Part shown: piece by piece, positions 85-23,281 of the stretch
How positions within the stretch are numbered: the stretch's first letter is position 1
How the letters are laid out: each line of letters opens with the position of its first letter
DNA from: a virus
Taxonomy: Duplodnaviria; Heunggongvirae; Uroviricota; Caudoviricetes
Direction: 5' to 3' (one strand)
IMG/VR virus record: IMGVR_UViG_2541047942_000003
Coordinates: 1 to 32,640 of that record
Length of the DNA: 32,640 nucleotides
Position numbers and translations under genes: made by a program
The notes under the pieces: model-generated
What the model was told of the DNA's origin: nothing
The model's database searches: none
Seen by the model: only the letters and a program-made list of their open reading frames with translations

Positions 85-171
85 GCTGAAAAACATAACC
101 CATAAAATGCTAGCTGTACCAGGAACCACCTCCTTAGCCTGTGTAATCTCCCTTACACGGGCTTATTTTTT
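85..171 (+). ncRNA. cyaR: CyaR (RyeE)-like Hfq-dependent small RNA; its 3' terminator hairpin and U-tract overlap the prophage att core
   Basis: Sequence GCTGAAAAACATAACCCATAAAATGCTAGCTGTACCAGGAACCACCTCCTTAGCC...CTTATTTTTT matches my recollection of E. coli CyaR, including the CACCTCCTTAG anti-SD element and a terminal hairpin (GTGTAA/TTACAC) followed by a T-run. Identified from memory, not by search. Confidence 0.55.
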
Positions 172-172
172 A
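145..172. repeat. attR core: 28-bp direct repeat AATCTCCCTTACACGGGCTTATTTTTTA, reconstituting the cyaR 3' end
   Basis: Exact copy at 32138-32165; agrees with my recollection of the P2 attP/attB core (AAAAAATAAGCCCGTGTAAGGGAGATT on the other strand). Confidence 0.8.
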
Positions 173-235
173 CGCGTAATACAATGAAATAAAAGGATTT
201 ATTTCTGGTCACGTCCACACATTGACCACATCGAC

Positions 236-266
236 AAAAAAGCCCCTCGACTGAGGGGCTATTTTT
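236..266 (-). terminator. Bidirectional rho-independent terminator downstream of ogr
   Basis: 8-bp GC-rich stem (AGCCCCTC / GAGGGGCT) with a 4-nt loop, flanked by an A5 run and a T5 run. Confidence 0.6.
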
Positions 267-270
267 GTGA

Positions 271-489
271 TCACATCCACATAATTTGCTGCCCTGACGG
301 CAACGGGTGCGGCCTCACGGCGTGGACTTCTCCCGGCTTCACGATGTATCGCTGTACCGACTCATAAGTGATGAACGTGGCGCTGCAATTCACGTTCTGA
401 CACTGGTGATAACGCTCTTTTGTCGTGTCAGTGATATAGCGACTTGTACGCGCATGTGCGGCATGCTGGCATAAAGGACAATGAAACAT
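271..489 (-). CDS. ogr: Ogr late-gene transcriptional activator (zinc finger), 72 aa
   Basis: Translation MFHCPLCQHAAHARTSRYITDTTKERYHQCQNVNCSATF... with a Cys4 zinc-binding pattern. The true start is the internal ATG at 487-489; the 93-aa track ORF is an upstream extension. Confidence 0.9.
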   Translation of the reverse strand: MFHCPLCQHAAHARTSRYITDTTKERYHQCQNVNCSATFITYESVQRYIVKPGEVHAVRPHPLPSGQQIMWM

Positions 490-570
490 CGCGAGCACCT
501 CTTCCGGTTTTGTTGATGGTGTCATTTTAGTTAATTTATCCTTATAAAACAAACAGATAAAATAAAAATA

Positions 571-1734
571 TCACTCATCATCTTCTGTTTCGTACTCCAC
601 ATCAGAAAGCCTGACCTCAAGCTCTAAGGACGTCGTGAAGCCGCTATTATTCAGAAAATGTGTCACCTTAGTGATGGTCCAGTCCTGCTCGTCTATGACG
701 CGCTTAAAGCCTGACACTTTAACCGGCGTTTCCGTGTAAATATCTGCCCGACCAGTGGCAAGGCTGATGGAGAACTCCGCAACGCCCCGTTGCAGTTTGT
801 CCCACTTCGCCTGAGCGGCGCGCATAGCCTGCGCTTTCGTGGCATATACCGTGGTCAGGGCAAAAACGTTATCAGCCTCACCAGCCATGTATTCACCTTC
901 GCGCGCTTCCGGTACTTTTGGCGCTTTCTTCTGCGTGACTGGTTTCGCTTTCGGGTGCTCCAGTGCGCGCAGGTGTTTCTCTTTCTTTTTGCGTTTCAGT
1001 TTTACCTTCTGCTTTTGCGGCTTCGGGTCTTTGGTGTGTAACCACTTTGCCGTTACGCCGGTATAGGCTCCACGGTCAGCAATCGCAAAATGATGGCGGT
1101 CGCCGTCGCTGCGGGTTATGGTGACCTGCGGGATTTTTTTACCACTGGCCGTCACCCCCTGCCCCGCTTTGAGAAACAACAGTTTTCCCATTTTTACCGA
1201 CACCTCACCGCCGTTGCGTTCTGCAAGACGGGTCAGGAATTTCGCATCAGACTCCTGCGACTGGTCGATGTGCGGGATTTTAATTCCGGCCAGTGACGGA
1301 GCAACACTGGCTTCCAGCCTGTTACGGGAGGCTATCGCCTCAACAATCGCACCGAGCGTGGTGTCATGCCATGAGCCTTCACGGCGGGAATTGAGCGTCC
1401 CGCGAAAATCTGCACTTCGGGCGCGGATGGTAACCACATCCGGCGCGCCCCGGTGTTCAACCTCATCAACGGTAAATTTCCCTTTGCATACCAGGGCAAA
1501 ACCTTTCCAGCCGATATACACCGTCAGGACAGCGCCACGAACCGGTAGCCCTACCTGCCCGTCGGCATCGTTCAGTTCAATATCAAGCTGGTCAGCCTCA
1601 AAGCCCCGGTTATCCGTCAGAGTCATGCTCATCAGACGGTCGCTGATATTGCCGGTAATATCCCTGCTGTCGAGCATCAGCATGTAATCCGGCGTCAGCG
1701 TACTGCCTGCATCAAATGTCAGTGCATCCAGCAT
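571..1734 (-). CDS. D: Tail protein gpD (late control D)
   Basis: 387-aa translation matches P2 gpD; the start overlaps the U stop. Confidence 0.9.
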   Translation of the reverse strand: MLDALTFDAGSTLTPDYMLMLDSRDITGNISDRLMSMTLTDNRGFEADQLDIELNDADGQVGLPVRGAVLTVYIGWKGFALVCKGKFTVDEVEHRGAPDVVTIRARSADFRGTLNSRREGSWHDTTLGAIVEAIASRNRLEASVAPSLAGIKIPHIDQSQESDAKFLTRLAERNGGEVSVKMGKLLFLKAGQGVTASGKKIPQVTITRSDGDRHHFAIADRGAYTGVTAKWLHTKDPKPQKQKVKLKRKKKEKHLRALEHPKAKPVTQKKAPKVPEAREGEYMAGEADNVFALTTVYATKAQAMRAAQAKWDKLQRGVAEFSISLATGRADIYTETPVKVSGFKRVIDEQDWTITKVTHFLNNSGFTTSLELEVRLSDVEYETEDDE

Positions 1735-2213
1735 TATCCCGCCCCCGTCATACCCGTGAATCTGGTCGCCATACTGCCAGCTTTACCGATGAGCGATTCC
1801 GCCTGTTTACCGATATCGCCATAAAGCGCGGCCAGTGATTCATCAACGCGGGTGAGCGACAGCGTAAAATCAATTTTCCGGGGTGTGCCGTCTGCAAAGA
1901 AAATACTCCCTGTTTCACTCACCCTGCTGATGACATACATGCCGTAAATCATGCCGGTGCCATCCAGCAACGGCCACGCCCGGCCTTCCTCTGCCATCAG
2001 CCTGAGCGTGGTCATCGTCAGCTTGCCGCCGGTCAGTTCGGGATAAAGCACACCGGCCAGCGTCATGTTTTCCTCACCCACACCGAGAAACTGGTAGGCA
2101 TCCCGTTTACCGATACGGGAATTTGACGGCCAGCGATAATCTGATTCACGCTGCATGGTCTGGTGTGGCAACGTCTGGCGCATAAAAACAAACATACCTA
2201 ACGCGAGCATCAT
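1734..2213 (-). CDS. U: Tail protein gpU
   Basis: 159-aa translation; position between T and D; P2 gpU-like sequence. Confidence 0.9.
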   Translation of the reverse strand: MMLALGMFVFMRQTLPHQTMQRESDYRWPSNSRIGKRDAYQFLGVGEENMTLAGVLYPELTGGKLTMTTLRLMAEEGRAWPLLDGTGMIYGMYVISRVSETGSIFFADGTPRKIDFTLSLTRVDESLAALYGDIGKQAESLIGKAGSMATRFTGMTGAG

Positions 2214-2227
2214 TTTTCGTCACCTCC

Positions 2228-4675
2228 TTAACCGTCATGCATCATGCTGGCACGGGCGCGCGCACGTTTATCCCGCTCGTATTTTTCGAGCGCATCCTGT
2301 AACTGGCGGTCAAGCTGTGTCCCCGGCGCAGTACCACCCGTCAGGCTGATGTGATATTCGTTTTTACTCTGGTCCACATAAGAGCGGCCAGCCGGTGCCG
2401 TGACCGGCTGATAAGCCTGATAGCCTGCATAAGAACTGGTCGCCGGAATATAACCACCGGTGCCATACGTGGCGGCATGAGTTCTGGCGGCGGTCTGGTC
2501 AAGTGTGTCTGACTCTTTGTTGATAACACCGAGTTTTTCCAGTACCCAGTCAATACCACTGCGCAGTTTGTTGAACGCATTAAGCGGCAGCATCAGCGCG
2601 TCAGCCAGTGCCTGCCCGAACATGACGCCCGTGTCACGGCAACGGTTCAGGGTGTCCTGGGTGGCTTTAACCGGGGCAATCAGGTTTTTAAACCACTGCC
2701 ACGCGGCCTGTAACTTTTCGCCCAGCCAGTCAAACACCGGCTTCAGTGGCGTGAACAGTTCCCCCACCGGCGCAAATGCCGCTTTCAGCCCTTCAACCAC
2801 ACCGCCAAAGAATGCGCTGACAGGCTCCCAGTATTTACGGATAAGTAACGCCCCGGCGACAATGGCGGCCACCACAGCCACAACCGGCCAGCTAATCGCC
2901 CCGATGGCCGTCATAACAGCACTGCCAACCGTCGTGAAGATTGCCCCCATTGCGCCTGCTGCCGCGATGATGGCATTAATGCCGGTGATAACCGGCCAGG
3001 CTACAAGACCAATTGCACCGATGATGCCAATAAGCGCCAGTGCGCCACCGACAATGAGGCCGATGGTTGACGCCAGTGATTTGTTTTTCTGGATCCAGCC
3101 GTCGAGTTTTAACACATACTTTGTGGCCGTCTGAGTGAGCTTACGCAGTGCGCCTTCCTGCTGGTCAAACAGGTCAGTCCCCACCGCCTCATAAGCGGAC
3201 TGAAACTCCTTAAAGTCACCGCCGAGGTTGTCCTGCATGATTTTAACCAGCTCTTCCGTTTTACCGTCCGAGGCTTTCAGCGTGGCGGTCAGCGTATCCA
3301 GTTTTCCGCTTGCTGCCGCTGCCAGTAAAACGTTCGCTGATTTCAGTGCTTCCTCACCAAAAATGGTTTTAAGGTATTCCCCCTTCTGAGACGTTCCCAG
3401 CTTGTGTTTATCAAAGCTGGCCTGAATCTCTTTCAGAATGGTGAACAACGGGCGCATATTTCCCTTTTTGTCCGAGGTTTTAACGCCAAGCTCTTTGAGT
3501 GCATCCCATGCTTTCCCTGTCGGAGCCTGTAATCGGGTGACAACGGCACTGCTACCCGTACCCGCCATTGACCCCCTGATGTTATTGTCATGCAGCACAC
3601 CTGTCATGGCCGCTGCCTGCTCAAGACTTACACCTGCCGTCCTCGCAACCGGCCCGAGGTAAGTCAGTGCATCACTGAGCCCCTGAAAATCAGCCGCCGA
3701 CTTATTCATCGTTGCCGACAACACGTCGCCCACATGGCTGACATCATCATTTGACAGTTGAAAGGATGCCTTAGTCCCCAGCAACAGTTGCGCGTTTTCT
3801 TCCATCGACCGCTGATTCGCCAGTGCCATATTCAGCGTGACCGGCGTTGCCGCCTGAATAGCCGCAGCATCTCCACCCGCTTTCGCAATGATAATCTGCG
3901 CACCGGCCGCATCATCCGCCGAGGCGGCGGTATTATCGCCGAGCTGGCGCGCCTGCTTGCGTAGTGCAGCCATTTCGGCGGAGTCTTTTGCCACTCCGAG
4001 CACGGCCTGCAATTCTGAGTTTTTCTGCGCAAACTCATAACCGGGCATCAGCAACTTAACTCCGGCCATCGTTCCCGCCGCCGCAATCCCCACACCGGCA
4101 GCGCCCACCGAGGCCATATTTCCGGCCAGTTCCTTTCCGGCCTGATAACGCTGTTTTACTGCGTTAAGTTTTGCCTGTTGCGCACTGACACGCGCCAGCG
4201 CATCACGCTGACGGTTAAGCTGTGCAGTGGTTTCACCGATACGGTTTTTCAGTCCCTGCTCGTCATGTGCAAGATTGCGGGTATTAATTCCCACAGCGGC
4301 CAGCTCCCGCTGCTGGCGTTTAACGGAATCCGTCAGGCGGTTATATTTCGCCTGTAAGTCCTCCGCCGCTCGCTTTGCGGATTCCAGCACTTTCGCCTGA
4401 GCACGGGTCGGACGTTCGGTATTTTTAAACTGTGTGGCAAGGGCTTCGGCTTCCAGCCGTGCCTTTTCAAGTGCATGACCAGTCACGGCAAGCTGTGCAC
4501 TGGTCTTGCGGAATCCCTCAATACGGGATGCGTGACCGTTCAGCTCGCGCAGTGATTTTTGTGTTTCCCGGATATCCCCCGACAGCGACTTACTCGCTGT
4601 GCGGATGGATTTAAACGGGCGGGATGCCTGGTCAACAGCCCTGAGCAATACCTGTAATTTTACATTGTTACTCAT
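2228..4675 (-). CDS. T: Tail tape measure protein gpT
   Basis: 815 aa, coiled-coil and Ala/Gly-rich hydrophobic stretches typical of tape measure proteins; synteny downstream of E/E'. Confidence 0.9.
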   Translation of the reverse strand: MSNNVKLQVLLRAVDQASRPFKSIRTASKSLSGDIRETQKSLRELNGHASRIEGFRKTSAQLAVTGHALEKARLEAEALATQFKNTERPTRAQAKVLESAKRAAEDLQAKYNRLTDSVKRQQRELAAVGINTRNLAHDEQGLKNRIGETTAQLNRQRDALARVSAQQAKLNAVKQRYQAGKELAGNMASVGAAGVGIAAAGTMAGVKLLMPGYEFAQKNSELQAVLGVAKDSAEMAALRKQARQLGDNTAASADDAAGAQIIIAKAGGDAAAIQAATPVTLNMALANQRSMEENAQLLLGTKASFQLSNDDVSHVGDVLSATMNKSAADFQGLSDALTYLGPVARTAGVSLEQAAAMTGVLHDNNIRGSMAGTGSSAVVTRLQAPTGKAWDALKELGVKTSDKKGNMRPLFTILKEIQASFDKHKLGTSQKGEYLKTIFGEEALKSANVLLAAAASGKLDTLTATLKASDGKTEELVKIMQDNLGGDFKEFQSAYEAVGTDLFDQQEGALRKLTQTATKYVLKLDGWIQKNKSLASTIGLIVGGALALIGIIGAIGLVAWPVITGINAIIAAAGAMGAIFTTVGSAVMTAIGAISWPVVAVVAAIVAGALLIRKYWEPVSAFFGGVVEGLKAAFAPVGELFTPLKPVFDWLGEKLQAAWQWFKNLIAPVKATQDTLNRCRDTGVMFGQALADALMLPLNAFNKLRSGIDWVLEKLGVINKESDTLDQTAARTHAATYGTGGYIPATSSYAGYQAYQPVTAPAGRSYVDQSKNEYHISLTGGTAPGTQLDRQLQDALEKYERDKRARARASMMHDG

Positions 4676-4847
4676 TCGTGTTTCCGCTTCGCCGGAGCGC
4701 CTTTTCGCGCCATGTGATGAGTTCGGTCAGACTCATGGGATACAGTTCTGATGGCGGCCAGTGAAATATCACTGCCACATCCGCCATCAGGTCATCGACC
4801 GACAGATTTTTCGGGAACGTCACTGCACCGAGTTCGGCGACAAAAAA
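4632..4847 (-). CDS. E': E' extension of the gpE+E' fusion, reached by a programmed -1 frameshift at the TTTTTTG heptamer (4841-4847, minus strand)
   Basis: Slippery heptamer in the last codons of E; the -1 frame is open from there to a TGA at 4632-4634 (hand translation), overlapping the T start at 4675. Confidence 0.6.
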
Positions 4848-5095
4848 CCGACCACCTTACCGGCCAGCGCCACAAGGTCAGGCAGTTCCAGCGCGGCGAC
4901 CTCCTGCTCGGTCAGCATCGGTGCCGTCATGCGCGGCAGCACTTTAATCAGTGCATCGACTTCGGAGTTTGCGACCGCAGCCAGACTGACACCGCGCAGC
5001 GTCCCGGCATTAGGTTTCATCAGCGTGACCTGTTCGATAACCTGTTCACCACGTTTAACCGGATTATCCAGGGTAATGACGTTTTCTTTGTTCAT
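4820..5095 (-). CDS. E: Tail assembly chaperone gpE
   Basis: 91-aa translation MNKENVITLDNPVKRGEQVIEQVTLMKPNAGTLRG... matches P2 gpE; ends ...GFLSPNSVQ with a TGA at 4820-4822. Confidence 0.88.
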   Translation of the reverse strand: MNKENVITLDNPVKRGEQVIEQVTLMKPNAGTLRGVSLAAVANSEVDALIKVLPRMTAPMLTEQEVAALELPDLVALAGKVVGFLSPNSVQ

Positions 5096-5151
5096 GGTTT
5101 TCTCACTTCTGAATCGGGGTTAACCGGTCAGCCAGGCTGACCGGATGAAAA

Positions 5152-5670
5152 TCACAGGCCGATATTGCGGCGGTGTTGCTCCAGCCGGTCGACGCCGTTC
5201 ACCTTCTCAATCATGTTGATGGTGTCGATTTCGACCAGCTCCTTACCGTCCATCGTCAGCCGGAAATAGGTGCAGACCACGGAGATTTTCGACTCGGTGT
5301 CTTCTCCTTGTTTACCCTCGCCGGTGTCGATTTCTTTCTGACGGCCACGCATGACCACCTCGACGGCCACCGTTTCGCCGGTATCGTCGCGCTGGTAAGA
5401 ACCGGCAAAACGAATCGGCACAGCATCCACACCGGTTGCGGCGTAAAGCTCCCAGATAACCGAATCCGGGAAGCCCCCGAGCGACCACTCCATTGACAGC
5501 GCATCGTCATCAAGGCCGAGGTCTACCGGTGCGCTGCCGTTCATTCCCGCACCGCGATAGTTTTCGAGCTTACGGGTCAGTTTTGGCAGCGTGATGGACT
5601 TTGCAACGCCCTGATAGCTGTAGCCGTTCAGAAAGACGTTCATTAACTTGAGTTTGCGCGGCATTGCCAT
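5152..5670 (-). CDS. FII: Major tail tube protein gpFII
   Basis: 172-aa translation matches P2 FII; synteny. Confidence 0.9.
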   Translation of the reverse strand: MAMPRKLKLMNVFLNGYSYQGVAKSITLPKLTRKLENYRGAGMNGSAPVDLGLDDDALSMEWSLGGFPDSVIWELYAATGVDAVPIRFAGSYQRDDTGETVAVEVVMRGRQKEIDTGEGKQGEDTESKISVVCTYFRLTMDGKELVEIDTINMIEKVNGVDRLEQHRRNIGL

Positions 5671-5682
5671 CGGTCAGGCTCC

Positions 5683-6873
5683 TTAATTGCTGTTAACCGA
5701 AGTGACCAGATTTGCCAGGTATTTATCGGTAATACGCTGGCGCAGGGTCAGGTTTTCGAGAGGAGGCACCGGTGTATAGTCGTAGTCGATATACAGTTTT
5801 CCGGCCTTGAGGGTTTCCGCATCGTTGGATTCTTCGCTGAACCAGCAGGTCGCATCCACGATATAGCCGTTTGTTTTCAGCTCACGGAATTTGGCATTGA
5901 TGCCGTCAACGATGTCGCGAATCAGCGTTGCGGTGATGGGCTTGTCCACCGCCCACATGTGCGCCTCAGCCATCGTGTCGGCCAGCACCTGCGCGGTGCG
6001 GGTGTAGTTTTCAAAGAGGAACAGCGGGTCATCAGAGCAGGTACGGTTACCCCAGAATCGGAAACCGTCGCGGCGAATCAGCGTAGTGACACCTGACTCG
6101 TTAAGCAGGTCAGCATCGGTGCCGGACTCCTGCAAATCCCAGAATACAGATGCGCTGATGCCGGTAACACCGTTTACCCCGACGTTGGACAGCGTTTTAT
6201 GCCAGCCCTGCTCCTGGTCGATTTTAGCGCGCAGACCCAGTGCACGGGCGGTGGCATACGCGGTGGCGGTGGTACTGGTGACCGTATCCCATGCGAGGAA
6301 ATCCGGCCAGATGACCATCAGCTCACGCTGGCTGAAATTCTGACGGTAGGCTTTCACCTCGGAAATGGTTTTACAGCCCCATGCGCTGATATACCCGAAA
6401 GCGCGCAACTTCTGACAGACTGATGCCAGTGCAACAGCCACCTCTTTGGTATCCAGTCCCGGTACGCCGAGAATACGCGGTTTAACGCCGGTAACCGACT
6501 CAGCGCCCATCAGGGCTTTCAGTCCGGTGTACTGACCGTTTTCGTCGGTGGTGCCGATGATATTGGAAACGGTCTGCGCGAGTTTCGTTTCCTCGTCGTC
6601 GCCGGTGCCGTCTTCCACACGCACAACAACGGTGACCGGTTTTGACTGGTCGGCGATGGCCTGCAACGATGCCGCCAGCGTGCCTTTTTTACCGGCCTTT
6701 GCAATTACACTCTGCACATTGGTAATCAGCACCGGTTTATTGAGGGGGAAGGTTTCCGCATCCGCATCGCTGGCCGTGCAGACCATGCCGACAATGGCAG
6801 TGGATACGGTGGAAATGACACGTGTGCCGTCGTTAATCTCCAGCACCTGCACGCCGTGATGATAGTCACTCAT
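5683..6873 (-). CDS. FI: Contractile tail sheath protein gpFI
   Basis: 396-aa translation matches P2 FI; synteny. Confidence 0.9.
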   Translation of the reverse strand: MSDYHHGVQVLEINDGTRVISTVSTAIVGMVCTASDADAETFPLNKPVLITNVQSVIAKAGKKGTLAASLQAIADQSKPVTVVVRVEDGTGDDEETKLAQTVSNIIGTTDENGQYTGLKALMGAESVTGVKPRILGVPGLDTKEVAVALASVCQKLRAFGYISAWGCKTISEVKAYRQNFSQRELMVIWPDFLAWDTVTSTTATAYATARALGLRAKIDQEQGWHKTLSNVGVNGVTGISASVFWDLQESGTDADLLNESGVTTLIRRDGFRFWGNRTCSDDPLFLFENYTRTAQVLADTMAEAHMWAVDKPITATLIRDIVDGINAKFRELKTNGYIVDATCWFSEESNDAETLKAGKLYIDYDYTPVPPLENLTLRQRITDKYLANLVTSVNSN

Positions 6874-6970
6874 CCGTTTAACTCCGTGGTTAATGGGTGA
6901 GTGGTATTTTCAGTTGTGCAGGGCATGAGATGCTATTTGACCTGGCTGGTCAGGGGATGAAACAACAGAT

Positions 6971-6995
6971 AAAAAAGGCGGGCAATCAGCCCGCC
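6971..6995 (-). terminator. Rho-independent terminator at the end of the V-W-J-I-H-G operon
   Basis: Stem GGCGGGC / GCCCGCC with a 5-nt loop, followed on the minus strand by a T6 tract (A6 on plus at 6971-6976). Confidence 0.55.
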
Positions 6996-7203
6996 TGTAT
7001 TTATTGCGGTATTTCCGACCATTCAGGATTTGCAGGATCCACACGACCAGAAAGACAGCTACTGATTAATCAGGCCAATAAATACATGAACAGTAAGCAA
7101 TAGCCCGGCAGGTCTGAGGTACTGGCGCAATATAATTTGTGGCTGGATTACCTGTACGCACCGGAGCGGTCCGATACTTCCGGTGCGTCAGATATTGAAT
7201 GGC

Positions 7204-7614
7204 CTACGCCTCCTGCAGTTCAGGCCAGATGACATCCGGTGCGGTGCTGGTATCTGTTGCCGTCACAGCGTCGATATAATCCAGCACAACGTTAAGTCGG
7301 GTAGTTTCTTCTTGCGTCAGTTTGCGCCCGGCCTGCAGCTTTAACTGAATCACGCTGATATTGACCATTGCTGCGTCTATCAACGACTGTTTTTTCTGTT
7401 CAGCGTCAGCTACCAGTTCATCATGAGAACGTTCCGGAGGGAGCGGCGCAGTAAATACCCCGTCTGAATACGCCCAGCCGATTCCGGGCTGCTCACTGAT
7501 ATCAGAAATATTAATGAGCTGCTGATCATCCGGCACTGTGAATTCATCCTCGCCATCCCAGACAATGACATTCACAACCATCCCATTTTCAATAACTGCA
7601 TATGACGCATTCAT
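7204..7614 (-). CDS. G: Tail fiber assembly protein gpG, 136 aa
   Basis: Translation MNASYAVIENGMVVNVIVWDG... is a typical tail fiber assembly chaperone. The start ATG at 7612-7614 overlaps the H stop TAA at 7614-7616; the track ORF start at 7638 is an upstream extension. Confidence 0.8.
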   Translation of the reverse strand: MNASYAVIENGMVVNVIVWDGEDEFTVPDDQQLINISDISEQPGIGWAYSDGVFTAPLPPERSHDELVADAEQKKQSLIDAAMVNISVIQLKLQAGRKLTQEETTRLNVVLDYIDAVTATDTSTAPDVIWPELQEA

Positions 7615-9293
7615 TATGCAAACTCCTCGATAATACAAATCCCTGCAGCGCCTTTCCCGCCCGTCATACTGGTTCCGCTATAACCGGCATCGTATGCACC
7701 ACCGCCACCTGAACCATATGCCTTGCCGCTAACACCACCGCCAGCGCCTGCGCGTCCACCGCCCCCCCAGTACGATGTTCCGCCTTCACCGCTGACGCCG
7801 ATATTTCCGGACTGACCGTCGCCTCCACATCCACCAATGATGTTGATATCGCCAGTACTCGGCACACCTCCGTTACCACCGTTTGTGTTTGTGACTCCTG
7901 ACTTTCCGCCGCCTGCGCCACCAGGAGCAATTAACGATGCGAATACGCTATTCCCGCCCCTGGTGCCGTTCGTCGCACTAACACCACCGGCCCCACCTGC
8001 GCCGATAGTGACTGGATAACTATTCTGTGTCGGGGTCATTATTGAAATTATTGTTCCACCGGCCCCACCGCCAGCACCGAAAAACGTTTCATTATTGGAT
8101 ATAGCCTTGCAGCCGCCCCCTCCGCCACCGCCGCCCGTTATTGTGACCCTGATCCGTTTTGTTCCTGGTGTCGGGGTGTACGTACCTGATGACGTGAAAA
8201 CCCGGGTATTCACCAAGCGTCCCACGTATCCGCTTGTATCTCCCAAACCAAGATAATGAATAACCTCCTGTTTGCTTGTTTTAGCCAGAATATCCCGTCC
8301 AACATTAGTCAGGGTTGTCAGGCTGGCTGTATCATTCCCCGTAAAATACGGTAGTTTGTCTGCCGCAGTGGCAAGGCCTGCCAGTGCGGTCAGTGTGGCG
8401 TCGGCAGGTTGTTTTCCATTGGCAAGGTCATATACAGCCTTCACGGCTTTTGGTGTGGCAGCCTGCGTTTCTGACGTGCTGTTAGTGGCACTGCTGAGCT
8501 GGACAAGGCCTTTTCCCGCTGTGGTCGCGTCCTGTGCGGTATATTTCCCGTTAGCAAGGTCATATGCTGTCTTTACCGCCTTTGGCGTTGCCGCAAGCGT
8601 TTCAGAATCGCTGTTGGTGGCACTACTGAGCTGGACAAGACCTTTTCGCGCTGTGGTCGCGTCCTGTGCAGTATATTTCCCGTTAGCAAGGTCATACGCG
8701 ATCTTTACCGCTCTCGGCGTTGCGGCCAGTGTTTCAGACGTGCTGTTGGTTGCGCTGCTTAACTGAGTAAAACCTTTTGCGGTCAGCGATGCATCCGGGT
8801 GTCGTCGTGACTGTTCGTGTTCTGAGATTTTGTCATCCACATATTTACGGGTCGCCAGTACCACCGACGGATCGATTTTCAGCGTGATGGCTTCGGTATT
8901 CGAGACAACCAGAATCATGCGGATAGTCTGGGTACGACCACTGCCTTCCTGCAACTGCGGTTTGTACGTTTCCGGGCAGTTCGCCACCGCAATGAGTACG
9001 CCTTCATCATCATAAAGCCCAATCTCACGGATCCAGAATCCTCCCTCGTTTTCAGGGATAATTTGCTCCACAATAATCTGGCTCTGATTGTTAGGGTCAA
9101 CACTCAGAAGATTCAGCGGTGCAATGCGTTTCTGGTTAATCAGTTTTGTCTGTACCGGGTCTGGTGTCGGCAAGACACCATTCGCATCACCAACGGCCAT
9201 TTGCGTCAGATTCAGCTTACTGCCGAGCATCGTCGCGTTAGCCAGTCGTGCTGCGCCCTGATTAGTCAGAATGGCGTAGTATTTCACTGTCAT
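7614..9293 (-). CDS. H: Tail fiber protein gpH with internal tandem repeats and a glycine-rich C-terminal domain
   Basis: N-terminal part is P2 gpH-like; three tandem copies of a roughly 44-aa unit (QLSSATNS.SETLAATP.AVK.AYDLANGKYTAQDATTA); C-terminal 200 aa rich in GG/GGxGG. Confidence 0.85.
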   Translation of the reverse strand: MTVKYYAILTNQGAARLANATMLGSKLNLTQMAVGDANGVLPTPDPVQTKLINQKRIAPLNLLSVDPNNQSQIIVEQIIPENEGGFWIREIGLYDDEGVLIAVANCPETYKPQLQEGSGRTQTIRMILVVSNTEAITLKIDPSVVLATRKYVDDKISEHEQSRRHPDASLTAKGFTQLSSATNSTSETLAATPRAVKIAYDLANGKYTAQDATTARKGLVQLSSATNSDSETLAATPKAVKTAYDLANGKYTAQDATTAGKGLVQLSSATNSTSETQAATPKAVKAVYDLANGKQPADATLTALAGLATAADKLPYFTGNDTASLTTLTNVGRDILAKTSKQEVIHYLGLGDTSGYVGRLVNTRVFTSSGTYTPTPGTKRIRVTITGGGGGGGGCKAISNNETFFGAGGGAGGTIISIMTPTQNSYPVTIGAGGAGGVSATNGTRGGNSVFASLIAPGGAGGGKSGVTNTNGGNGGVPSTGDINIIGGCGGDGQSGNIGVSGEGGTSYWGGGGRAGAGGGVSGKAYGSGGGGAYDAGYSGTSMTGGKGAAGICIIEEFA

Positions 9294-9901
9294 GCGTTTA
9301 CTCTCAGGTTATCAATTAAATGAATGACCGAGGCCGGGAAATAATCCCCTCCGACAATAATGGCCTCCGGGGTGTAGGGATAAACCGTCAGGGCGTCACC
9401 GTGATAGCATCCCGTTCCGGCAAAAATGTTGCCGGTTGTACTTAAACTGATAGCCAGTCCCGTCAGATGGCGACTCGCCGGTTTTGCATCAGCAACGAGA
9501 CGTTCCAGCTCCAGATACATTTCTTCGGTAATACCCTGCTCAAGCACGCCAACAACGATACGGAACGTCCCCGGCTCCTCGTTGAGCTGCCACCACTCCC
9601 TCACTTCAATCAGATAGCCGAGCGGCTCCACAACACGCCGGATTGCGCCGACAGTACCCTTATGACAGTGGATGAAATAGGCATCGCGGATAACGGTGCG
9701 TTTTGTCGCTTCCGGCCACTTTTCATCCCACCTGTCGACCGAAAAGGCCCACGCCAGCCACGGCAGCAGATTTGCCGGGCAGGTGTCCGGGTTCCACAGC
9801 TCACGAATACTGACCGGCGTTTTTTCAATTTCTGCACAGGCTTTCGCGGCAGCAATTTCAAGCGGTGATGAGCCGGTCGGCAGCAGGCGCGAATCACTCA
9901 T
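9290..9901 (-). CDS. I: Baseplate protein gpI
   Basis: 203-aa translation matches P2 gpI; synteny. Confidence 0.88.
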   Translation of the reverse strand: MSDSRLLPTGSSPLEIAAAKACAEIEKTPVSIRELWNPDTCPANLLPWLAWAFSVDRWDEKWPEATKRTVIRDAYFIHCHKGTVGAIRRVVEPLGYLIEVREWWQLNEEPGTFRIVVGVLEQGITEEMYLELERLVADAKPASRHLTGLAISLSTTGNIFAGTGCYHGDALTVYPYTPEAIIVGGDYFPASVIHLIDNLRVNA

Positions 9902-10802
9902 CCGAGCCTCCGGTCACGACGTGGTATTCGGTACAGAAAGACGCCTGCGTACTGTTGAGCACGATATCGGCCAGTGGTGCAGCCAGTTCGACACGCTGCA
10001 CGCCTTCCACATGCAAAGCGGCATAAATGGCAGACAGACGGATGTCGCGCCCCAGCCGGTGCTGTGCCGTGATATATGCTTCCAGTTTTTTCACGGCGGC
10101 CGCGCGGATGGGTTCGCTTTCGGGACCAGGGTAAAGGTAAAGCGTGGCGTTTATCTGGTATTCAACAATGGCGGCAGACTGCACGGTCACGCGGTCGGCC
10201 ACCGGTCTGACGTCCTCGCCATTAAGGGCGTTACGCACCACGGCCAGCAGGTCTTCGGATGCGACGCCGTTATTTTCACGTGACAGCACAGAGATGGTGA
10301 CGCAGGCCGGAGACGGACTGGTGACAGAGATATCCGCGACGCGCCCGTCGGCACTGCGACCATGATACTGATAGGCACCCACCGACCCGGCGACGCTTAA
10401 ACCCTCAAACGCCTGCTGAATACGCAGACGATAATCGGTGTCAGACTCCATCACTGCCGGTGTCGGCGGGATGGTCGAATCATCTGCCGGGGTGATAATC
10501 AGGCGCGTGGTGTTGTAATTGGCACCAATCACATCAAGGTCATTACCGGCGGCACAGGCCAGCATTACCGCCCGTGCGGCCTCATTCACACGCTGACGCC
10601 AGATAAGCTCACGATAAGCATTTTCCTCCAGCAGTTTGACGAGAGGCTCAGATTCCAGCGTCAGGGTACGGGCGACCGCCTCCTGCTGGTCTTCCGGGTA
10701 AAGGGAAATCAGTGTCGCCTTGCGTTCGGCGAGAATGGTTTCAAAGTCCAGCTCCTCGACCACATCCGGTGCGGGTAGCTGGTTCAGGTCGATAATCGGC
10801 AT
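9894..10802 (-). CDS. J: Baseplate wedge protein gpJ
   Basis: 302-aa translation matches P2 gpJ. Confidence 0.9.
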   Translation of the reverse strand: MPIIDLNQLPAPDVVEELDFETILAERKATLISLYPEDQQEAVARTLTLESEPLVKLLEENAYRELIWRQRVNEAARAVMLACAAGNDLDVIGANYNTTRLIITPADDSTIPPTPAVMESDTDYRLRIQQAFEGLSVAGSVGAYQYHGRSADGRVADISVTSPSPACVTISVLSRENNGVASEDLLAVVRNALNGEDVRPVADRVTVQSAAIVEYQINATLYLYPGPESEPIRAAAVKKLEAYITAQHRLGRDIRLSAIYAALHVEGVQRVELAAPLADIVLNSTQASFCTEYHVVTGGSDE

Positions 10803-10806
10803 GGTT

Positions 10807-11154
10807 TCAACTCACAGGGATGGTTAACGAAAGTGGCTGGCCGGTGTCGTTGTGCTGACCGGTTAACGTGACCGTCATTCGCCCGTCAAAACTGCGCGCC
10901 GTGGTGACGGATGACAGGGTGACGCGGGGTTCCCATTTCAGCACTGCCATGTAACAGGCGACCTTAATCTGCAACTCAAGCGCCGGAGTCTGCGGCTGGT
11001 CAATCATTGACGCCAGCAACGAGCCGTAATCACGACGCATCACCCGTGAGCCGACCGGTGTGCGCAGGATATCGCCGATACTCTGGCTGATATGCTCAAG
11101 GTCAGTGACCGTCAGGCCATCACTGCGATTCATTCCGAGATAACGCGCTGTCAT
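10807..11154 (-). CDS. W: Baseplate protein gpW (gp25-like)
   Basis: 115-aa translation matches P2 gpW. Confidence 0.9.
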   Translation of the reverse strand: MTARYLGMNRSDGLTVTDLEHISQSIGDILRTPVGSRVMRRDYGSLLASMIDQPQTPALELQIKVACYMAVLKWEPRVTLSSVTTARSFDGRMTVTLTGQHNDTGQPLSLTIPVS

Positions 11155-11786
11155 AAAGGACTCCCGGTTGTGCCGCCGCTGTCGCCGGGGTGTTTGTGGG
11201 TATGCAGTACCTTACCGTTTGATGAGAGTTCACCGCCGGTGTGTTCAATGTTGCCGCGCATCGTCCCGCCCTTCTGCACTTCCAGCGTGCCGGTAGTCAG
11301 TTTGTTAGTGCAGACCACTTCCGGTGTGTCCAGGGTGACACGGGTTGACGCTTTCACCGTGACCACCGGTACCGTGGCAGTAACAGAATCAGAAGCCGTC
11401 ACGCTGGCCGTTTTAATTCCGCTTACCGTGAGTGCACTGGTTTCGGGTTCATACTCAATCACCGCCCCGTCAGGGAAACGGATATGCAGGGCATCCGCCG
11501 ACGCAGACGGCGCGCGGTTATCGCCGGAATAAATCCCCGGCAGAACGAACGCCGTGTCGAGTTCACCGCCCACGGCCAGAATCAGCACCTGTTCCCCCAC
11601 GGAAGGTGCCCACCATGTGCGCGAACGTCCGGCGCGATGGGTCAGCCACTGAAGCCAGTCGGTGCACATGCCGCCGGTCTGCACACGGCAGCGACCGGCG
11701 TTAAGGTCGGTTTCGACGATAATGCCGGTGCGGATCATGTTGCGCAGTGCGCGCGCGAGTTCCTGAATATTTGCGAGAGTGTTCAT
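11151..11786 (-). CDS. V: Baseplate spike protein gpV
   Basis: 211-aa translation matches P2 gpV. Confidence 0.9.
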   Translation of the reverse strand: MNTLANIQELARALRNMIRTGIIVETDLNAGRCRVQTGGMCTDWLQWLTHRAGRSRTWWAPSVGEQVLILAVGGELDTAFVLPGIYSGDNRAPSASADALHIRFPDGAVIEYEPETSALTVSGIKTASVTASDSVTATVPVVTVKASTRVTLDTPEVVCTNKLTTGTLEVQKGGTMRGNIEHTGGELSSNGKVLHTHKHPGDSGGTTGSPL

Positions 11787-11852
11787 AACGGGAAGGATGC
11801 CGCCGGGTCATACCGGCGGCAATGTGACGATGAGGTGTCGGGAATGGCACAA

Positions 11853-12305
11853 CTAACGGTCGAGGTGCGCCAGAATAATCTCTTCAATCATCTGCACATC
11901 CTCACCGGTAAAGCCGAGCAGAGGACGCGCCGGATAATCAATTTTCTTACCGTCTTTCCGGGTTTCTTCCGACAGACCGAACTGATGCACACTGGCGATT
12001 TTCGGCGACTTCCCGCCGTAAAATTCCATTGATGCCTGTTCCGGGCTGGCGCGGATATGCAAAAAACGACTGGTGATAAGTTTCGCAAACATTTTTCGCT
12101 TAACACGACCAGTCTTTTTTCTGGCGCTCTGCTGCTGGCGTGGCGCGTAGGGTGTGCCGTCCGGGGCTTTCTGTGCCATCACCCGACGCTGCTGACTCTG
12201 ACGCAGACGTTTCGCCAGTTCGGCACTCAGTCGCCGACGCCCTGACGGTGACAGCGATTCAATCAGTCCGGTCAGCCGGTCTTCAAAACGCTTAAACTCA
12301 TTCAT
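11853..12305 (-). CDS. S: Tail completion / virion morphogenesis protein gpS
   Basis: 150-aa translation matches P2 gpS. Confidence 0.88.
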   Translation of the reverse strand: MNEFKRFEDRLTGLIESLSPSGRRRLSAELAKRLRQSQQRRVMAQKAPDGTPYAPRQQQSARKKTGRVKRKMFAKLITSRFLHIRASPEQASMEFYGGKSPKIASVHQFGLSEETRKDGKKIDYPARPLLGFTGEDVQMIEEIILAHLDR

Positions 12306-12765
12306 CCCACTTGCTCACCAGTTCGCCATTGATATAAAGCTCCATCGGGCGGGTGACCGGCTCCGGCGGCGTGGGTTCCGGGATATTCTTCACATGCAGC
12401 GCGCCGTCCACCTCACTGACCAGCGTGCGCTCGGTCAGCATCAGGCTGATGCTGATATCAAAGCTGCTGTCATTGTTGATGTCTGCATAAAACGTGAAAC
12501 CTTTTTTCTGGCCTTCGTCGGTGGTCATGATGTCGGGCTGATTTTCCCGCAGCCACGCCAGCACCGGCACGATGAGCAGGTCAAAATCACCGGTAAAGTC
12601 GGTCACAATGATATTGAGCGTGTAACGCTTTTCGAATGACAGCGACGTCGCCAGTGTGGAGGCAATACTCCCGTTATCCACGAATATCCGCAGCATCTCG
12701 GGGCTGGTTTTCAGCACCGTGACGGCATCAGTCAGTGCCCTGCGCAGGCTGTCGGGTTTGAGCAT
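12298..12765 (-). CDS. R: Tail completion protein gpR
   Basis: 155-aa translation matches P2 gpR. Confidence 0.88.
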   Translation of the reverse strand: MLKPDSLRRALTDAVTVLKTSPEMLRIFVDNGSIASTLATSLSFEKRYTLNIIVTDFTGDFDLLIVPVLAWLRENQPDIMTTDEGQKKGFTFYADINNDSSFDISISLMLTERTLVSEVDGALHVKNIPEPTPPEPVTRPMELYINGELVSKWDE

Positions 12766-13018
12766 CGTTTTCGTCCTGACAGTGTTTAATCATTTTTACC
12801 TGGCTGGCACAGCGTGCCAGCGCGTTCTCAAGCTGCCGGATATCGGCACTTAAATCACCGTTCGTCTCCGGGTCGCTGCCCGGCATCGGGCAAAGACTCA
12901 CTTTCGGGCAGGCGTTGGCGACAATCACTGGCGTCAGTGCAGGCCGGACGCTGGTGCAACCGGCGCACAGCATCAGGCAGGTCAGCGCCGTACCAGCGGC
13001 GAAAATCTTCGTTTTCAT
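12728..13018 (-). CDS. lysC: LysC, Rz1-like outer-membrane spanin lipoprotein, about 96 aa
   Basis: Internal start MKTKIFAAGTALTCLMLCAGC with a lipobox (LCAGC); lies in the +1 frame inside the 3' half of lysB and runs into R, as in P2. Start chosen by me at the ATG ending at 13018. Confidence 0.65.
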   Translation of the reverse strand: MKTKIFAAGTALTCLMLCAGCTSVRPALTPVIVANACPKVSLCPMPGSDPETNGDLSADIRQLENALARCASQVKMIKHCQDENDAQTRQPAQGTD

Positions 13019-13298
13019 TGAGTAACCTCGTGATGGTTTTCTCGCGCTGTGCTTCACGCTTCGCGGCGTTCTCCAGTTCCTGACGCAGTGCCACCTGCGC
13101 CAGCTCGTTTTTGTCTGCCCTGGTGAGGGCAACATGAAGCTGATTTTTCAGCATGGTGATGGTCGTCTGCTGTTCACTGGCGACGTTATTCGCCCTGTCC
13201 AGCGAGGCGCGCAGGCTGGCATTTTTGTGTTTCACCAGAAACAGACCGGTCACCGCCAGCGATAACAACACGACCAGCACAATCATCAGCTTTGACAT
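12855..13298 (-). CDS. lysB: LysB, Rz-like inner-membrane spanin
   Basis: 147 aa with an N-terminal TM segment (MSKLMIVLVVLLSLAVTGLFLV) then a charged coiled-coil region; position after lysA. Confidence 0.8.
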   Translation of the reverse strand: MSKLMIVLVVLLSLAVTGLFLVKHKNASLRASLDRANNVASEQQTTITMLKNQLHVALTRADKNELAQVALRQELENAAKREAQREKTITRLLNENEDFRRWYGADLPDAVRRLHQRPACTDASDCRQRLPESESLPDAGQRPGDER

Positions 13299-13711
13299 AG
13301 TTCCCGCCCCTCAAGACGCTGACGACAGGCTTTACGTATCAGCCGGAAAAACAGCGATGCCACGAGATAAATCAGTGCGGTAAAAATCCACCCGGCAGCG
13401 ACCAGCGAGATAAACGTCACCACCATCACCACCAGAGCCGCCGCCCGTCTGCACCACGGCACCGGCTGCAAAAACAGCGACGTGACAATCTTCACGGCCA
13501 GCGATTCCGGTGGCAGCTCCCGCCCGTAGCGTTCCAGCACATACTCAGTGGCATACACGCCGACACCACCGGCAACCACACAGATAACCGTCGCCAGAAT
13601 CGCCCAGGCGGCGACAAAATTGGCGGCCACGCTCTGCGGGTAAATCAGGGACAGTGCCAGCATCAGCGCCAGCGACACGTTCAGCATCAGTGAAAGGGAT
13701 AATTTCTTCAT
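13286..13711 (-). CDS. lysA: LysA, membrane protein of the lysis cassette
   Basis: 141 aa with several hydrophobic helices; P2 LysA-like sequence and position. Confidence 0.8.
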   Translation of the reverse strand: MKKLSLSLMLNVSLALMLALSLIYPQSVAANFVAAWAILATVICVVAGGVGVYATEYVLERYGRELPPESLAVKIVTSLFLQPVPWCRRAAALVVMVVTFISLVAAGWIFTALIYLVASLFFRLIRKACRQRLEGRELCQS

Positions 13712-13725
13712 GGTGTTTACTCCGT

Positions 13726-14223
13726 TTAAGCCGGTACGCCGCCAGCGGTACGCCAGACGGTGACCAGTTTTTCCAGTGAATGCTCACGCTGACCGTAACC
13801 GGCACCCGGCAGGGACGCCCAGATATTTCGACAGCGTGAAATGGCGCGCTCAATGCGTCCCGCCCGGATGTCATCCAGCGCACCGCGTTCGCGGATCAAC
13901 TGAATGGCGAGTCTGTCCTGCGACAACGGACTGAAATCCGGCAGGGCAAGCTGTTTGCGGTAATGCGGCCAGAACAGGTAAAGCTGCTGATAGCGACCGG
14001 AGGCCGTGGATTTTTCACCGCGACGGTTAAACACCTTCGCCGGTCGGCCATGCGCGAACGGGTGGTCACTGTAGTCGGTGAAGATTTCCGGCTTCCCGTC
14101 CAGTCCGGTGACTATCACGTCATAGCCCCGGTTTTTCGTCAGCGGATGATTCGCCGTCCCTTCGGACACGGCCAGCATGTCGAGAAAGGCGGCGATATTC
14201 TGATGCGTGTTAATTACCGGCAT
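13726..14223 (-). CDS. K: Endolysin gpK
   Basis: 165-aa translation matches P2 gpK; sits between holin and lysA. Confidence 0.88.
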   Translation of the reverse strand: MPVINTHQNIAAFLDMLAVSEGTANHPLTKNRGYDVIVTGLDGKPEIFTDYSDHPFAHGRPAKVFNRRGEKSTASGRYQQLYLFWPHYRKQLALPDFSPLSQDRLAIQLIRERGALDDIRAGRIERAISRCRNIWASLPGAGYGQREHSLEKLVTVWRTAGGVPA

Positions 14224-14504
14224 TACTGTTTCCCCCTGCCCTTAAAGCGGCGCTGAATGGCAATCTCAATCACCTGATAACCGGCGATACCCAGCATGGA
14301 GCCGATGCCGCACACCGCAGGCAGTGACAGGTCAGGAAACTGCACCAGAACAACACCGGCAACCATCGAGACAAAACCACCGAGCAACATGCGCCCGATA
14401 AACAGACGCGGGGTGATGGGTTCACCACCGGCAAGCACCTTGCCGACAACAATCAGCACCCCAATCATGAAAAGCGACAGGACGCTTTTTTCTTCTGCTG
14501 TCAT
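14223..14504 (-). CDS. Y: Holin gpY
   Basis: 93 aa with hydrophobic TM segments and a charged C-terminus; P2 gpY-like. Confidence 0.88.
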   Translation of the reverse strand: MTAEEKSVLSLFMIGVLIVVGKVLAGGEPITPRLFIGRMLLGGFVSMVAGVVLVQFPDLSLPAVCGIGSMLGIAGYQVIEIAIQRRFKGRGKQ

Positions 14505-14507
14505 GCG

Positions 14508-14711
14508 TTACTCCCACAGATTGACAGTTTCAGCCACGGGCGCGGTCTGAACGTCGGGCAGTTCGACGGCGGTGCCGTGCGGCAGCACCGCCCCCAGTTC
14601 AGCCAGTCCCGGATTTGCGGCGAGCACGGTCTCAACCACGCCCTCAGTGCGCCCGTAATACCGGACACAAATGGCGTCGAGCGTGTCGCCCTGTAGCGCA
14701 AAGGTCTTCAT
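14508..14711 (-). CDS. X: Tail protein gpX (LysM-like), 67 aa
   Basis: Translation MKTFALQGDTLDAICVRYYGRTEGVVETVLAANPGL... from the internal ATG; its start overlaps the L stop. The track ORF start at 14780 is an upstream extension. Confidence 0.85.
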   Translation of the reverse strand: MKTFALQGDTLDAICVRYYGRTEGVVETVLAANPGLAELGAVLPHGTAVELPDVQTAPVAETVNLWE

Positions 14712-15220
14712 CAGATTTGACTCACGATGCAGCGCGGCTTGTCCTGGATACGCGCCACCGCCCAGCGCATATCCCGCCACAGTTCATCAATGGTGCTGTC
14801 AATGCTGTCAGCCTTCTTGTCGCCTTTCGCACTGGCATCCACACCGCGATAACGCTCATAAAGCGATGCGGTCGCCATCGCACACACGGCGCGCTCGTAG
14901 TAAAAAACTTTGATGCTTTCACCGTCGATGTCGTCCGCCGGGACGTCCGCCAGACGCGTAAAACCGGCAGCAATTTTCTGTTCGCGGTACTCGTACAGCT
15001 CCGCATTCGTCTCCGCCATGCCTGACTTGATGGCCTCACGCAGACGGGCGGGGGCGACGGTCTGCTCAAGGCGCATACGTTCCCGGACGCGCTTCGGGTC
15101 GATATCGGGAAAAAAGAACGTGTTTTTAATCACCGGCTCGTCGCCTGCCGGTTGCGGGATGACCACCGTACCCTCACCGGACACGGGAGCCTCCTTTCGC
15201 GGAATAATCAGCGTCATCAT
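14711..15220 (-). CDS. L: Head completion protein gpL, 169 aa
   Basis: Translation from MMTLIIPRKEAPVSGEGTVV... matches P2 gpL; start taken at the internal ATG ending at 15220. Confidence 0.85.
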   Translation of the reverse strand: MMTLIIPRKEAPVSGEGTVVIPQPAGDEPVIKNTFFFPDIDPKRVRERMRLEQTVAPARLREAIKSGMAETNAELYEYREQKIAAGFTRLADVPADDIDGESIKVFYYERAVCAMATASLYERYRGVDASAKGDKKADSIDSTIDELWRDMRWAVARIQDKPRCIVSQI

Positions 15221-15319
15221 GACTACCTCTGAAAAGTCGGGCGGTGGACGCCGGTGCAGTGTCAGGTGATTCACCCTCACTGACCGGCGTGCCGCCCTGG
15301 CGCGGGGCGCATTCGGTTG

Positions 15320-16063: not shown

Positions 16064-16066
16064 CGG

Positions 16067-23280: not shown

Positions 23281-23281
23281 A

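Follow-up and report, generated by a model that had tools for sequence, protein, structure and literature searches.

Attachment sites that rebuild the 3' ends of RNA genes carry sequence for which, in the established view, the origin is host DNA. One of the genes used in this way is cyaR (ryeE), which encodes a CRP-regulated and Hfq-dependent small RNA with a functionally important U-tail at its terminator. The insertion site of concern here lies between yegQ (trhP) and yegR-yegS on the chromosome of Escherichia coli, and it is locI, the canonical and long-known attB of phage P2. Both the locI site and the P2 remnant found in strain K-12 were reportedly described by Barreiro and Haggard-Ljungquist in 1992. 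The gene ryeE was already named as a known phage target by Bobay et al. in 2013 (PMC3603311), citing Wassarman 2001, and a related case is the integration into the 3' end of ryeB/SdsR in Salmonella (PMC3603311).

In the present study we have analysed a stretch of 32,640 nucleotides, called the window in the following, which corresponds to positions 1 to 32,640 of the IMG/VR record IMGVR_UViG_2541047942_000003. It holds a P2 prophage at locI together with a piece of the chromosome on the yegR side. The overall reading proposed here is that the host DNA next to the prophage carries the relic of a P2-type attachment-site arm, and that the islet around yegR is a P2-type remnant older than the prophage itself. 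To this reading as a whole, with the P2 prophage at locI included, we assign a probability of roughly 0.8. For the comparison with other species, at least 120 loci with the cyaR pattern were collected from species-representative genomes; among the matches listed there is one Escherichia genome other than E. coli (E1V33).

Results

The coordinates of all features are collected in Table 1. A search with all P2 proteins against the window (tblastn) gives the gene order D-U-T-E-FII-FI ... V-S-R-lys-K-Y-X-L-M-N-O / P-Q / cos / A-B-cox / C-int. All essential genes are present in the order of P2 and with 92-100% identity, with the exception of the tail-fibre genes, of which H is recombinant and G remained without a match in this search. 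C, Cox and Ogr are 100% identical to those of P2, and of the non-essential genes only orf30, fun(Z), orf91, tin and old are either absent or have been replaced. The best match of the prophage among the phage records is Escherichia phage pro147 (96%), and a genome that is identical over window positions 32100-32640 annotates the integrase there as site-specific. No credible Rfam match was found for a retron non-coding RNA near the reverse transcriptase.

The attP arms contain the Int arm sites, the IHF site and the Cox sites in the same order as in P2. The near-identity of these elements to those annotated in AF063097 identifies the prophage, as far as its sequence is concerned, as a complete phage P2 sitting in the attachment site of that phage, which is formed by the final 27 nt of cyaR. 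The consensus of P2-type arm sites is tgTGGaCa (PMC3448106), which the two P-arm repeats GTCCACAC and GACCACAT fit on the other strand.

Table 1. Features of the window, with positions counted from its first base.
Feature	Position	Strand	Basis
cyaR (ryeE) sRNA gene, intact	85..171	+	Rfam RF00112, fold, identity to K-12
CyaR intrinsic terminator stem-loop	136..163	+	Terminator scan (11 pairs, then TATTTTTT); structure line of the Rfam alignment
Core copy, ogr-side junction (attR in P2 usage)	145..172	+	145-171 is the 27-nt P2 core; 172 is an extra identical base
IHF binding region, P2 attP arm	170..203		AF063097 protein_bind, transferred by alignment
Complete P2 prophage	173..32137		tblastn of all P2 proteins against the window
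Int arm-type sites ('P arm')	207..234		AF063097 protein_bind; repeats GTCCACAC and GACCACAT, 11 nt apart
Bidirectional terminator, ogr and F operon	241..260		Terminator scan on both strands; AF063097 annotation
ogr, late-gene activator	271..489	-	100% identical to P2 Ogr, 72 aa
cos, 19-nt P2 cohesive-end sequence	23282..23300		Exactly AF063097 1-19, reverse-complemented
int, tyrosine integrase	31045..32058	+	99.7% identical to P2 Int, 337 aa
Int arm-type sites (P' arm)	32024..32050		Two GTGTCCACA repeats within the end of int; transferred from AF063097
Cox (excisionase) binding region	32048..32121		Transferred from AF063097; identical to P2 here
Core copy, int-side junction (attL in P2 usage)	32138..32165	+	Exact repeat; no 5' stem arm upstream
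Putative relic of a P2-like attP arm, host side	32166..32216		Alignments to the P2 arm; shuffle test
11-bp hairpin without T-run	32228..32260		Read from the sequence; not called as a terminator
yegR, 105-aa predicted lipoprotein (PF27694)	32323..32640	-	RefSeq annotation of matching genomes

At the other end of the prophage, base 1 of the window corresponds to position 1357 of the cyaR locus of EA2 (L001), a strain in which the site is unoccupied, and the annotated yegQ CDS of that strain ends at 1356. The same neighbourhood is found widely, with yegQ (trhP) upstream of cyaR in 118 of 120 loci among the matches listed. A sequence-only reading of the window made before the present analysis had recognized positions 85-171 as resembling CyaR, and this is borne out by Rfam: the family RF00112 (CyaR_RyeE) matches positions 83-168 on the + strand over its full length (model positions 1-85 of 85), with 100.7 bits (gathering score 47) and an E-value of 3e-19. 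The gene is 87 nt long, and in its predicted fold the terminator stem is followed by the T-run. Window positions 1-175 agree with E. coli K-12 at all 175 bases, the cyaR promoter region (1-84) included, and with EA2 at 171 of 175, the mismatches being confined to bases past the U-run. The terminator and promoter scan of the window gave no sigma-70 consensus match at the cyaR promoter, as expected for an activator-dependent promoter.

The longest repeat common to the two ends of the window is the exact 28-mer AATCTCCCTTACACGGGCTTATTTTTTA, found in direct orientation at 145-172 and at 32138-32165. It brackets the 32-kb prophage, can be extended to 35 nt at 94% identity, and includes the 27-nt attP core annotated in P2 (AF063097, 24356-24382), to which window positions 145-171 are identical. 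The true core is 27 nt long, and the 28th matching base is part of the relic homology discussed below. Two further claims of the earlier reading, namely that the att core is the terminator end of cyaR and that integration regenerates the 3' end of the sRNA, are confirmed as well. The exact repeat lies in the end of 85-171, and the core spans the loop, the 3' arm and the subsequent T-run of the CyaR terminator, so that integration rebuilds cyaR, in line with the complete identity to K-12, and leaves exactly one functional copy. The second copy of the core forms no terminator because the 5' stem arm is absent there, and no terminator-like site or hairpin was detected at this copy in a scan of 31900-32640. 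In terms of mechanism, Int-mediated exchange within the 27-nt core shared with the P2 attP would give an intact cyaR at the ogr-side junction, with the terminator 3' arm and the U-run of the lysogen gene supplied by phage DNA, and an orphan core copy would remain at the int-side junction.

In EA2, cyaR runs directly into the sequence that is seen from window position 32166 onward. The int-side junction is present in 820 of 5426 complete E. coli genomes, and cyaR is joined to the P2 arm in 1195 of them, such that P2/cyaR junctions are found in about 15-22% of the complete genomes of the species.

It is the DNA just beyond the int-side core that is of main interest here. The sequence-only reading had pointed to a block with the motif TCTGGT that is shared between this host flank and the phage DNA at the opposite end, and had interpreted it as the remnant of an earlier P2-like occupant. 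The block and its coordinates are correct. By pairwise alignment, positions 200-239 and 32177-32216 are identical at 30 of 40 bases (75%), with TCTGGT at 205-210 and 32182-32187 and with the 15-mer CATTGACCACATCGA present exactly at 220-234 and 32197-32211. On the phage side, the block corresponds exactly to the Int 'P arm' binding site of the AF063097 annotation. The copy in the host flank runs colinearly with the core, in the same orientation, and sits 16 nt nearer to the core than the phage copy does. The interpretation as a remnant is supported too, considering both this match to the Int P arm and the location of the block inside an insertion of E. coli (see below).

Going outward from the core, the host-side sequence starts with ATGCATAA, to be compared with ACGCGTAA in P2. 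A 16-nt gap over the centre of the IHF site follows, and then TCTGGT. The first of the arm sites is destroyed (GTCTTCC), and the second one is intact within CATTGACCACATCGA and identical to that of P2. While most of the IHF site is missing from the common allele, most of the 16-nt gap is filled by P2-like sequence in two rarer alleles, those of strain 98200 (L133) and of an IMG/VR contig (L153), which retain ...GGATTGATCCC(A/T)GGT... where P2 has GGATTTATTTCTGGT. Further outward, the 11-bp hairpin lies approximately at the position of the terminator in the P2 arm; its stems are invariant in nine of ten E. coli genomes and have one mismatch in the tenth (AVS0528).

The significance of the similarity was estimated in several ways. 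A 15-nt exact match between two stretches of ca 130 nt has a chance expectation of ca 1.6e-5. When the alignment to the P2 arm is anchored at the core, the common allele scores 24, to be compared with a mean of -13.5, a standard deviation of 6.4 and a maximum of 10 for 2000 dinucleotide shuffles. The anchored scores of the longer alleles are 38 (L133) and 44-47 (L153). For the two alleles tested, the shuffle maxima are 10-13, and none of the 2000 shuffles reaches the observed score. The local score against the P2 arm is 34-38 for E. coli and 61-97 for eight loci of other species that have a full P2-type arm. The cyaR flanks of other species without such an arm, among the matches listed, do not exceed 24, except for one apparent relic (L101) at 30. 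These comparisons argue strongly that an older P2-type attP has left its ogr-side arm, now decayed, just beyond the int-side core, and that this DNA is not ancestral chromosome. The relic is near-fixed in E. coli, being present in 5400 of 5426 complete genomes, and is not a recent local event.

The comparison with other species gives the extent of the inserted DNA. In at least 58 Enterobacterales loci, yegS starts 76-151 nt past cyaR; these short loci include members of Klebsiella, Enterobacter, Citrobacter, Kosakonia and Pectobacterium, and also Escherichia sp. E1V33, in which the distance is 87 nt. Aligning E. coli with E1V33 reveals an insertion of ca 790 nt in the former, which starts exactly at the T-run of cyaR and ends at ...GAACTGAC(T)TTTT|ATCCTCCGACTTTCATCC, where the homology upstream of yegS resumes. 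Its GC content is 39% (37% in the yegR region), compared to 50-54% in the flanks. This yegR islet, carried by the same number of complete E. coli genomes as the relic (5400 of 5426), consists of the arm relic, the 11-bp hairpin, the minus-strand gene yegR and ca 320 nt of AT-rich DNA. It extends ca 320 nt past the end of the window, to a putative decayed second core.

At this right end, the terminal 75 nt of the insertion can be aligned with the int-side arm and core of P2 (P2 CCGTTGAAAGCCCCTACTGGTGACACCCTAAATCTCCCTTACACGGGCTTATTTTTT, E. coli CCATTGCAAGCTCCTGGTGGTAACCACTGAATCCTCCATACTTGAACTGACTTTT; ca 2265-2322 of locus L001 of EA2). The anchored score is 25, which is not reached by any of 2000 shuffles (mean -7.3, standard deviation 6.9, maximum 19) and is reached by 4 of 4997 real 75-mers. 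The best ungapped match to the core within the islet, 17 of 27 positions, is found exactly at the boundary; the Bonferroni-corrected P of this match is ca 0.1 when no position is prescribed beforehand. An unconstrained local alignment of the right end is not significant, as 44 of 500 shuffles reach its score, and among 118 IMG/VR loci there is no extant P2-like int-side arm that is closer to the right end than that of P2. That the right end of the islet represents a decayed P2-type int-side arm and core is thus a moderately supported assignment.

Protein fossils of P2 were searched for in the islet with tblastn of all P2 proteins, which returned noise only. When window positions 32166-32345 and the rest of the islet were compared by blastn with 50,697 phage records, only two records matched, both of which include host flank. 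One is AY639599 ('phage TP'), a K-12-type remnant, and the other is vB_EcoM-720R8; they were considered as a phage source for the relic and rejected. The same two records are also the only ones in which tblastn finds YegR among phages.

The homologue search for YegR returned only proteins of the Escherichia/Shigella type. Relatives of yegR with 66-80% identity are located at ordinary chromosomal loci of enterobacteria and have only the coding sequence in common with it. The gene may thus have come in after the element itself, or else be old cargo. The candidates P0016, P0044 and locus L064 were considered as divergent YegR lineages and rejected, since they are E. coli assemblies with homopolymer indels or fragmented gene calls.

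From its ends, its composition and the outgroup comparison, the whole yegR islet can, with moderate confidence, be regarded as what is left of an element that had used the same core for its integration, and a single insertion with both ends derived from att sites is the most economical reading. As a part of cyaR, the left core would then have been kept without change, and the right core would have decayed together with the adjoining int-side arm. Modern P2 phages would reuse the preserved left core, and new prophages would therefore stack to the left of the old stub.

Other occupants of the same site were also compared. K-12 has the order cyaR-core-ogrK-D'-partial core, followed by the same host-side sequence as in the window. 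D' is fused at TACACGGG within the int-side core, after which the universal relic begins. The T-run on the cyaR side of K-12 has six T, as in P2, and the one on the yegR side has seven, as in EA2. These counts suggest that strand exchange takes place to the left of the T-run, the length of which is polymorphic at unoccupied sites. In other species, full P2-like prophages follow cyaR at three loci (L092, L105 and L117) and short inserts of 1.9-2.9 kb bearing a P arm at three more (L034, L073 and L101). In Enterobacter, loci L020 and L057 have islands of ca 1.9 kb that have a further copy of the cyaR 3' end at their boundary and carry no P2-type arm.

Alternative Explanations

Given that the shared block is short, with 30 identities over 40 positions, and that it is displaced by 16 nt relative to the phage copy, one can ask whether it is a chance resemblance and the host flank plain E. 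coli intergenic DNA. This objection, which the sequence-only reading itself had raised, is excluded by the shuffle and cross-species controls. Namely, the anchored score is reached by 0 of 2000 shuffles, and the flanks of other species lacking the full arm stay at or below 24 (with one apparent relic at 30), compared to the 34-38 of E. coli. In addition, the block contains a 15-nt exact run and is colinear with the core in the same orientation, and the longer natural alleles carry the homology into the region of the IHF site. We therefore consider a chance match to be extremely improbable. A shared origin could also be explained by the reverse direction, in which P2 acquired its attP arm from E. 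coli chromosomal DNA located downstream of cyaR. For the 27-nt core itself, an origin in the host is indeed required. However, the block lies inside an insertion that is missing from E1V33 and from at least 57 other Enterobacterales loci, and transfer from phage to host would therefore be the direction. Moreover, the intact P arm, with the IHF site and both repeats, is found in P2-like prophages of other species, on chromosomes without the islet, and it is the host copy that is degenerate, one of its arm sites being destroyed, the IHF site deleted and the sequence polymorphic for indels. Capture by the phage is thus very improbable.

A different question is whether the block, although derived from a phage, has been kept for a function, either by binding Int as an auxiliary site, and so helping to make locI the site that P2 prefers, or by serving yegR as a regulatory or 3'-end element. 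The surviving arm site is identical to that of P2, and the 31-nt stretch ACCGTCTTCCATTGACCACATCGATAGAATC is the same in all of 10 diverse E. coli genomes, and in nearly all of the IMG/VR flanks, while the sequence immediately to its left is hypervariable and rich in indels. However, with ca 0.13 variable sites per position, 31 invariant positions have a nominal P of ca 0.015, before correction for the post hoc choice of the region compared. The intergenic stretch of the 10 genomes also has invariant runs of similar length outside the block, from which the block does not stand out statistically, and purifying selection on it is accordingly not supported. Furthermore, the loss of the IHF site and the 16-nt shift in spacing mean that the attP-like geometry is gone, and inactivation of yegR gave no phenotype in chemostats (PMC3708739). 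A retained function is accordingly improbable. Finally, the left arm relic could be real while the rest of the islet, with yegR, its AT-rich upstream region and the putative decayed core, is of separate origin, two or more unrelated events having hit one spot, or the element could have been a small island or satellite with a P2-type attP. Here the points in favour are that blastn and tblastn find no phage genes in the islet, that relatives of yegR reside at non-phage loci, that the evidence for the right end is moderate, and that the Enterobacter islands of ca 1.9 kb are bounded by a duplicated cyaR 3' end without a P2-type arm. On the other hand, the right end of the E. coli islet resembles the phage-specific side of attP and not cyaR, it stops exactly where the ancestral sequence resumes, and one insertion accounts for both ends more economically. 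We regard this last scenario as unlikely, but as one to be taken seriously, and prefer the reading of the islet as one P2-type remnant.

Discussion

That P2 resides in the end of cyaR is textbook knowledge, common and already known, and no new mechanism is opened by the present results. What is new, and what the arm comparison strongly suggests, is that the 'bacterial' flank of the classic attB would itself be derived from a phage. The yegR islet is probably the fossil of an earlier P2-like occupant that has come close to fixation in the species. No earlier account of the relic was found in the searchable literature. The reading offers an origin for an uncharacterised gene neighbourhood that is restricted to E. 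coli (yegR, PF27694), and it provides a clean and datable case of one sRNA 3' end being used repeatedly by one integrase family. In K-12-like and in lysogenic strains, remnants of three ages would adjoin one another.

There is also a caution for the automated calling of att sites, since the identity at the junction overshoots the true 27-nt core because of the relic homology. Some lysogens even have the phage-type ACGCGTAA on the host side. In lysogens, the int-side junction resembles a near-complete pseudo-attP, consisting of the P' arm, the Cox sites, the core and a partial P arm. One can speculate that the surviving arm site, and perhaps the decayed second core, still aid the strong preference of P2 for locI by giving Int an extra foothold, or bias excision and tandem integration at that junction, but we find this improbable.

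Compared to P2 at locI, the prophage of the window has the same 27-nt core, an Int that is 99.7% identical, the same layout of P arm, IHF site, Cox sites and P' arm, and the same site between yegQ and yegS. The mechanism is the same as for the reference P2, and only accessory loci differ.

The likeness to integration into the 3' ends of tRNA, tmRNA and other sRNA genes is that attP here, too, duplicates the 3' end of the RNA gene, so that the gene survives. As at other RNA-gene hotspots, the site is reused by related elements and the remnants gather distally. Unlike the usual RNA-gene targets, however, the gene encodes an Hfq-dependent sRNA, and its U-tail is supplied by the phage after integration.

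With respect to the arm sites of complex attP sequences, such as those of lambda and P2, the relic keeps one P2-type repeat in its native orientation relative to the core. It differs from them in that it adjoins attB, where arm sites are not expected, and in that the partner repeat and the IHF bend site are missing.

A parallel to the islet is the K-12 remnant, composed of ogrK and a truncated D gene (annotated as yegZ), which has the same site and orientation and likewise would be a prophage reduced by deletion. On the cyaR side the junction of the remnant has remained intact, and at the opposite end it passes into the core of the int side. The two differ in age. The K-12 remnant is young, being ca 96-97% identical to P2, with ogr retained, and specific to the strain, whereas the yegR islet would be old, with arms that are ca 70% identical to P2, no phage genes, and a presence in 5400 of 5426 genomes. 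K-12 carries the young remnant and the yegR islet side by side.

Variation at the host site

It is important to point out that the relic, the decayed P2-like attP arm on the host side, is not uniform within E. coli, as its left part is polymorphic for indels. Two longer alleles, found from position 769 in locus L133 (strain 98200) and from position 4502 in the IMG/VR contig L153, keep P2-like sequence of the IHF region, and one shorter allele (L249) is without TATCTCTGGTAA. In four IMG/VR contigs (L160, L185, L245 and L253) the phage-type ACGCGTAA takes the place of ATGCATAA right after the core and leads directly into the relic, which suggests an exchange or conversion reaching past the 27-nt core. 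The core itself also varies. In E. coli AVS0528 (L136) the cyaR terminator has ACACAGGC for ACACGGGC, a one-base change in the att core, and the same genome carries an AT-rich insertion of ca 170 nt directly 3' of the yegR stop codon. Two-piece matches resembling those of AVS0528 were obtained for several further genomes in a search of complete E. coli genomes.

Islands of ca 1.9 kb were also observed between cyaR and yegS in Enterobacter hormaechei B56 (L020) and E. nematophilus (L057). In each case the far boundary is formed by a duplicate of the cyaR 3' end that shows 4 mismatches in 27 positions. Downstream of cyaR, no P2-type arm is present in either island, and for this reason they may represent a different element at the same site.

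YegR homologues with 66–80% identity were found away from cyaR in seven enterobacterial contigs (L126, L127, L130–L132, L143 and L144). Their neighbours are either ivy and nitroreductase genes, or a bestrophin-like gene on one side and a MerR gene on the other, and only the coding sequence is conserved between these contigs and E. coli yegR.

Records and assemblies

Two records labelled as phage contain E. coli chromosomal flank. AY639599.1 ("Phage TP") is a K-12-type cyaR-ogr-D' remnant locus and includes yegQ, labelled there as "putative protease", while ON470606.1 (vB_EcoM-720R8) extends through yegR. Records of this type can give false phage matches for host DNA. Seemingly divergent YegR, YegS and YegQ proteins in a large protein collection were traced to E. 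coli assemblies (L064, ECMA0423; L129, GCA_026134665.1; L142) in which homopolymer indels are numerous or the gene calls are broken up; these do not represent divergent lineages.

Gene content of the prophage

Features of the window prophage
Feature	Window position	Strand	Basis
Tail-fibre gene H	7614-9293		P2 similarity in N-terminal part only
Type IV retron	21062-23040	-	RT + 2TM effector, PADLOC matches
PDC-S28 candidate defence protein, 827 aa	23484-25967	+	PADLOC, 1055 bits

The match of H to its P2 counterpart is confined to the N-terminal 404 amino acids (58% identity). Downstream of this part, H contains three tandem 132-nt repeats (window 8412-8807); compared with the reference copy, they are 100%, 83% and 64% identical. 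The window prophage has no counterparts of P2 G, fun(Z) and orf30.

In reference P2 no more than ca 190 nt separate the portal gene Q from cos, and in the window this interval is occupied by the retron. It consists of a reverse transcriptase of 424 aa (RT_IV, 586 bits in PADLOC) and a 2TM effector of 235 aa (2TM_IV, 282 bits). For an msr/msd-type RNA, no Rfam match was found in window 22800-23600, a stretch that takes in the region upstream of the reverse transcriptase gene.

Finally, the PDC-S28 protein, which also has weak matches to DinG-helicase-like proteins, is encoded at the place where reference P2 has old, tin and orf91.
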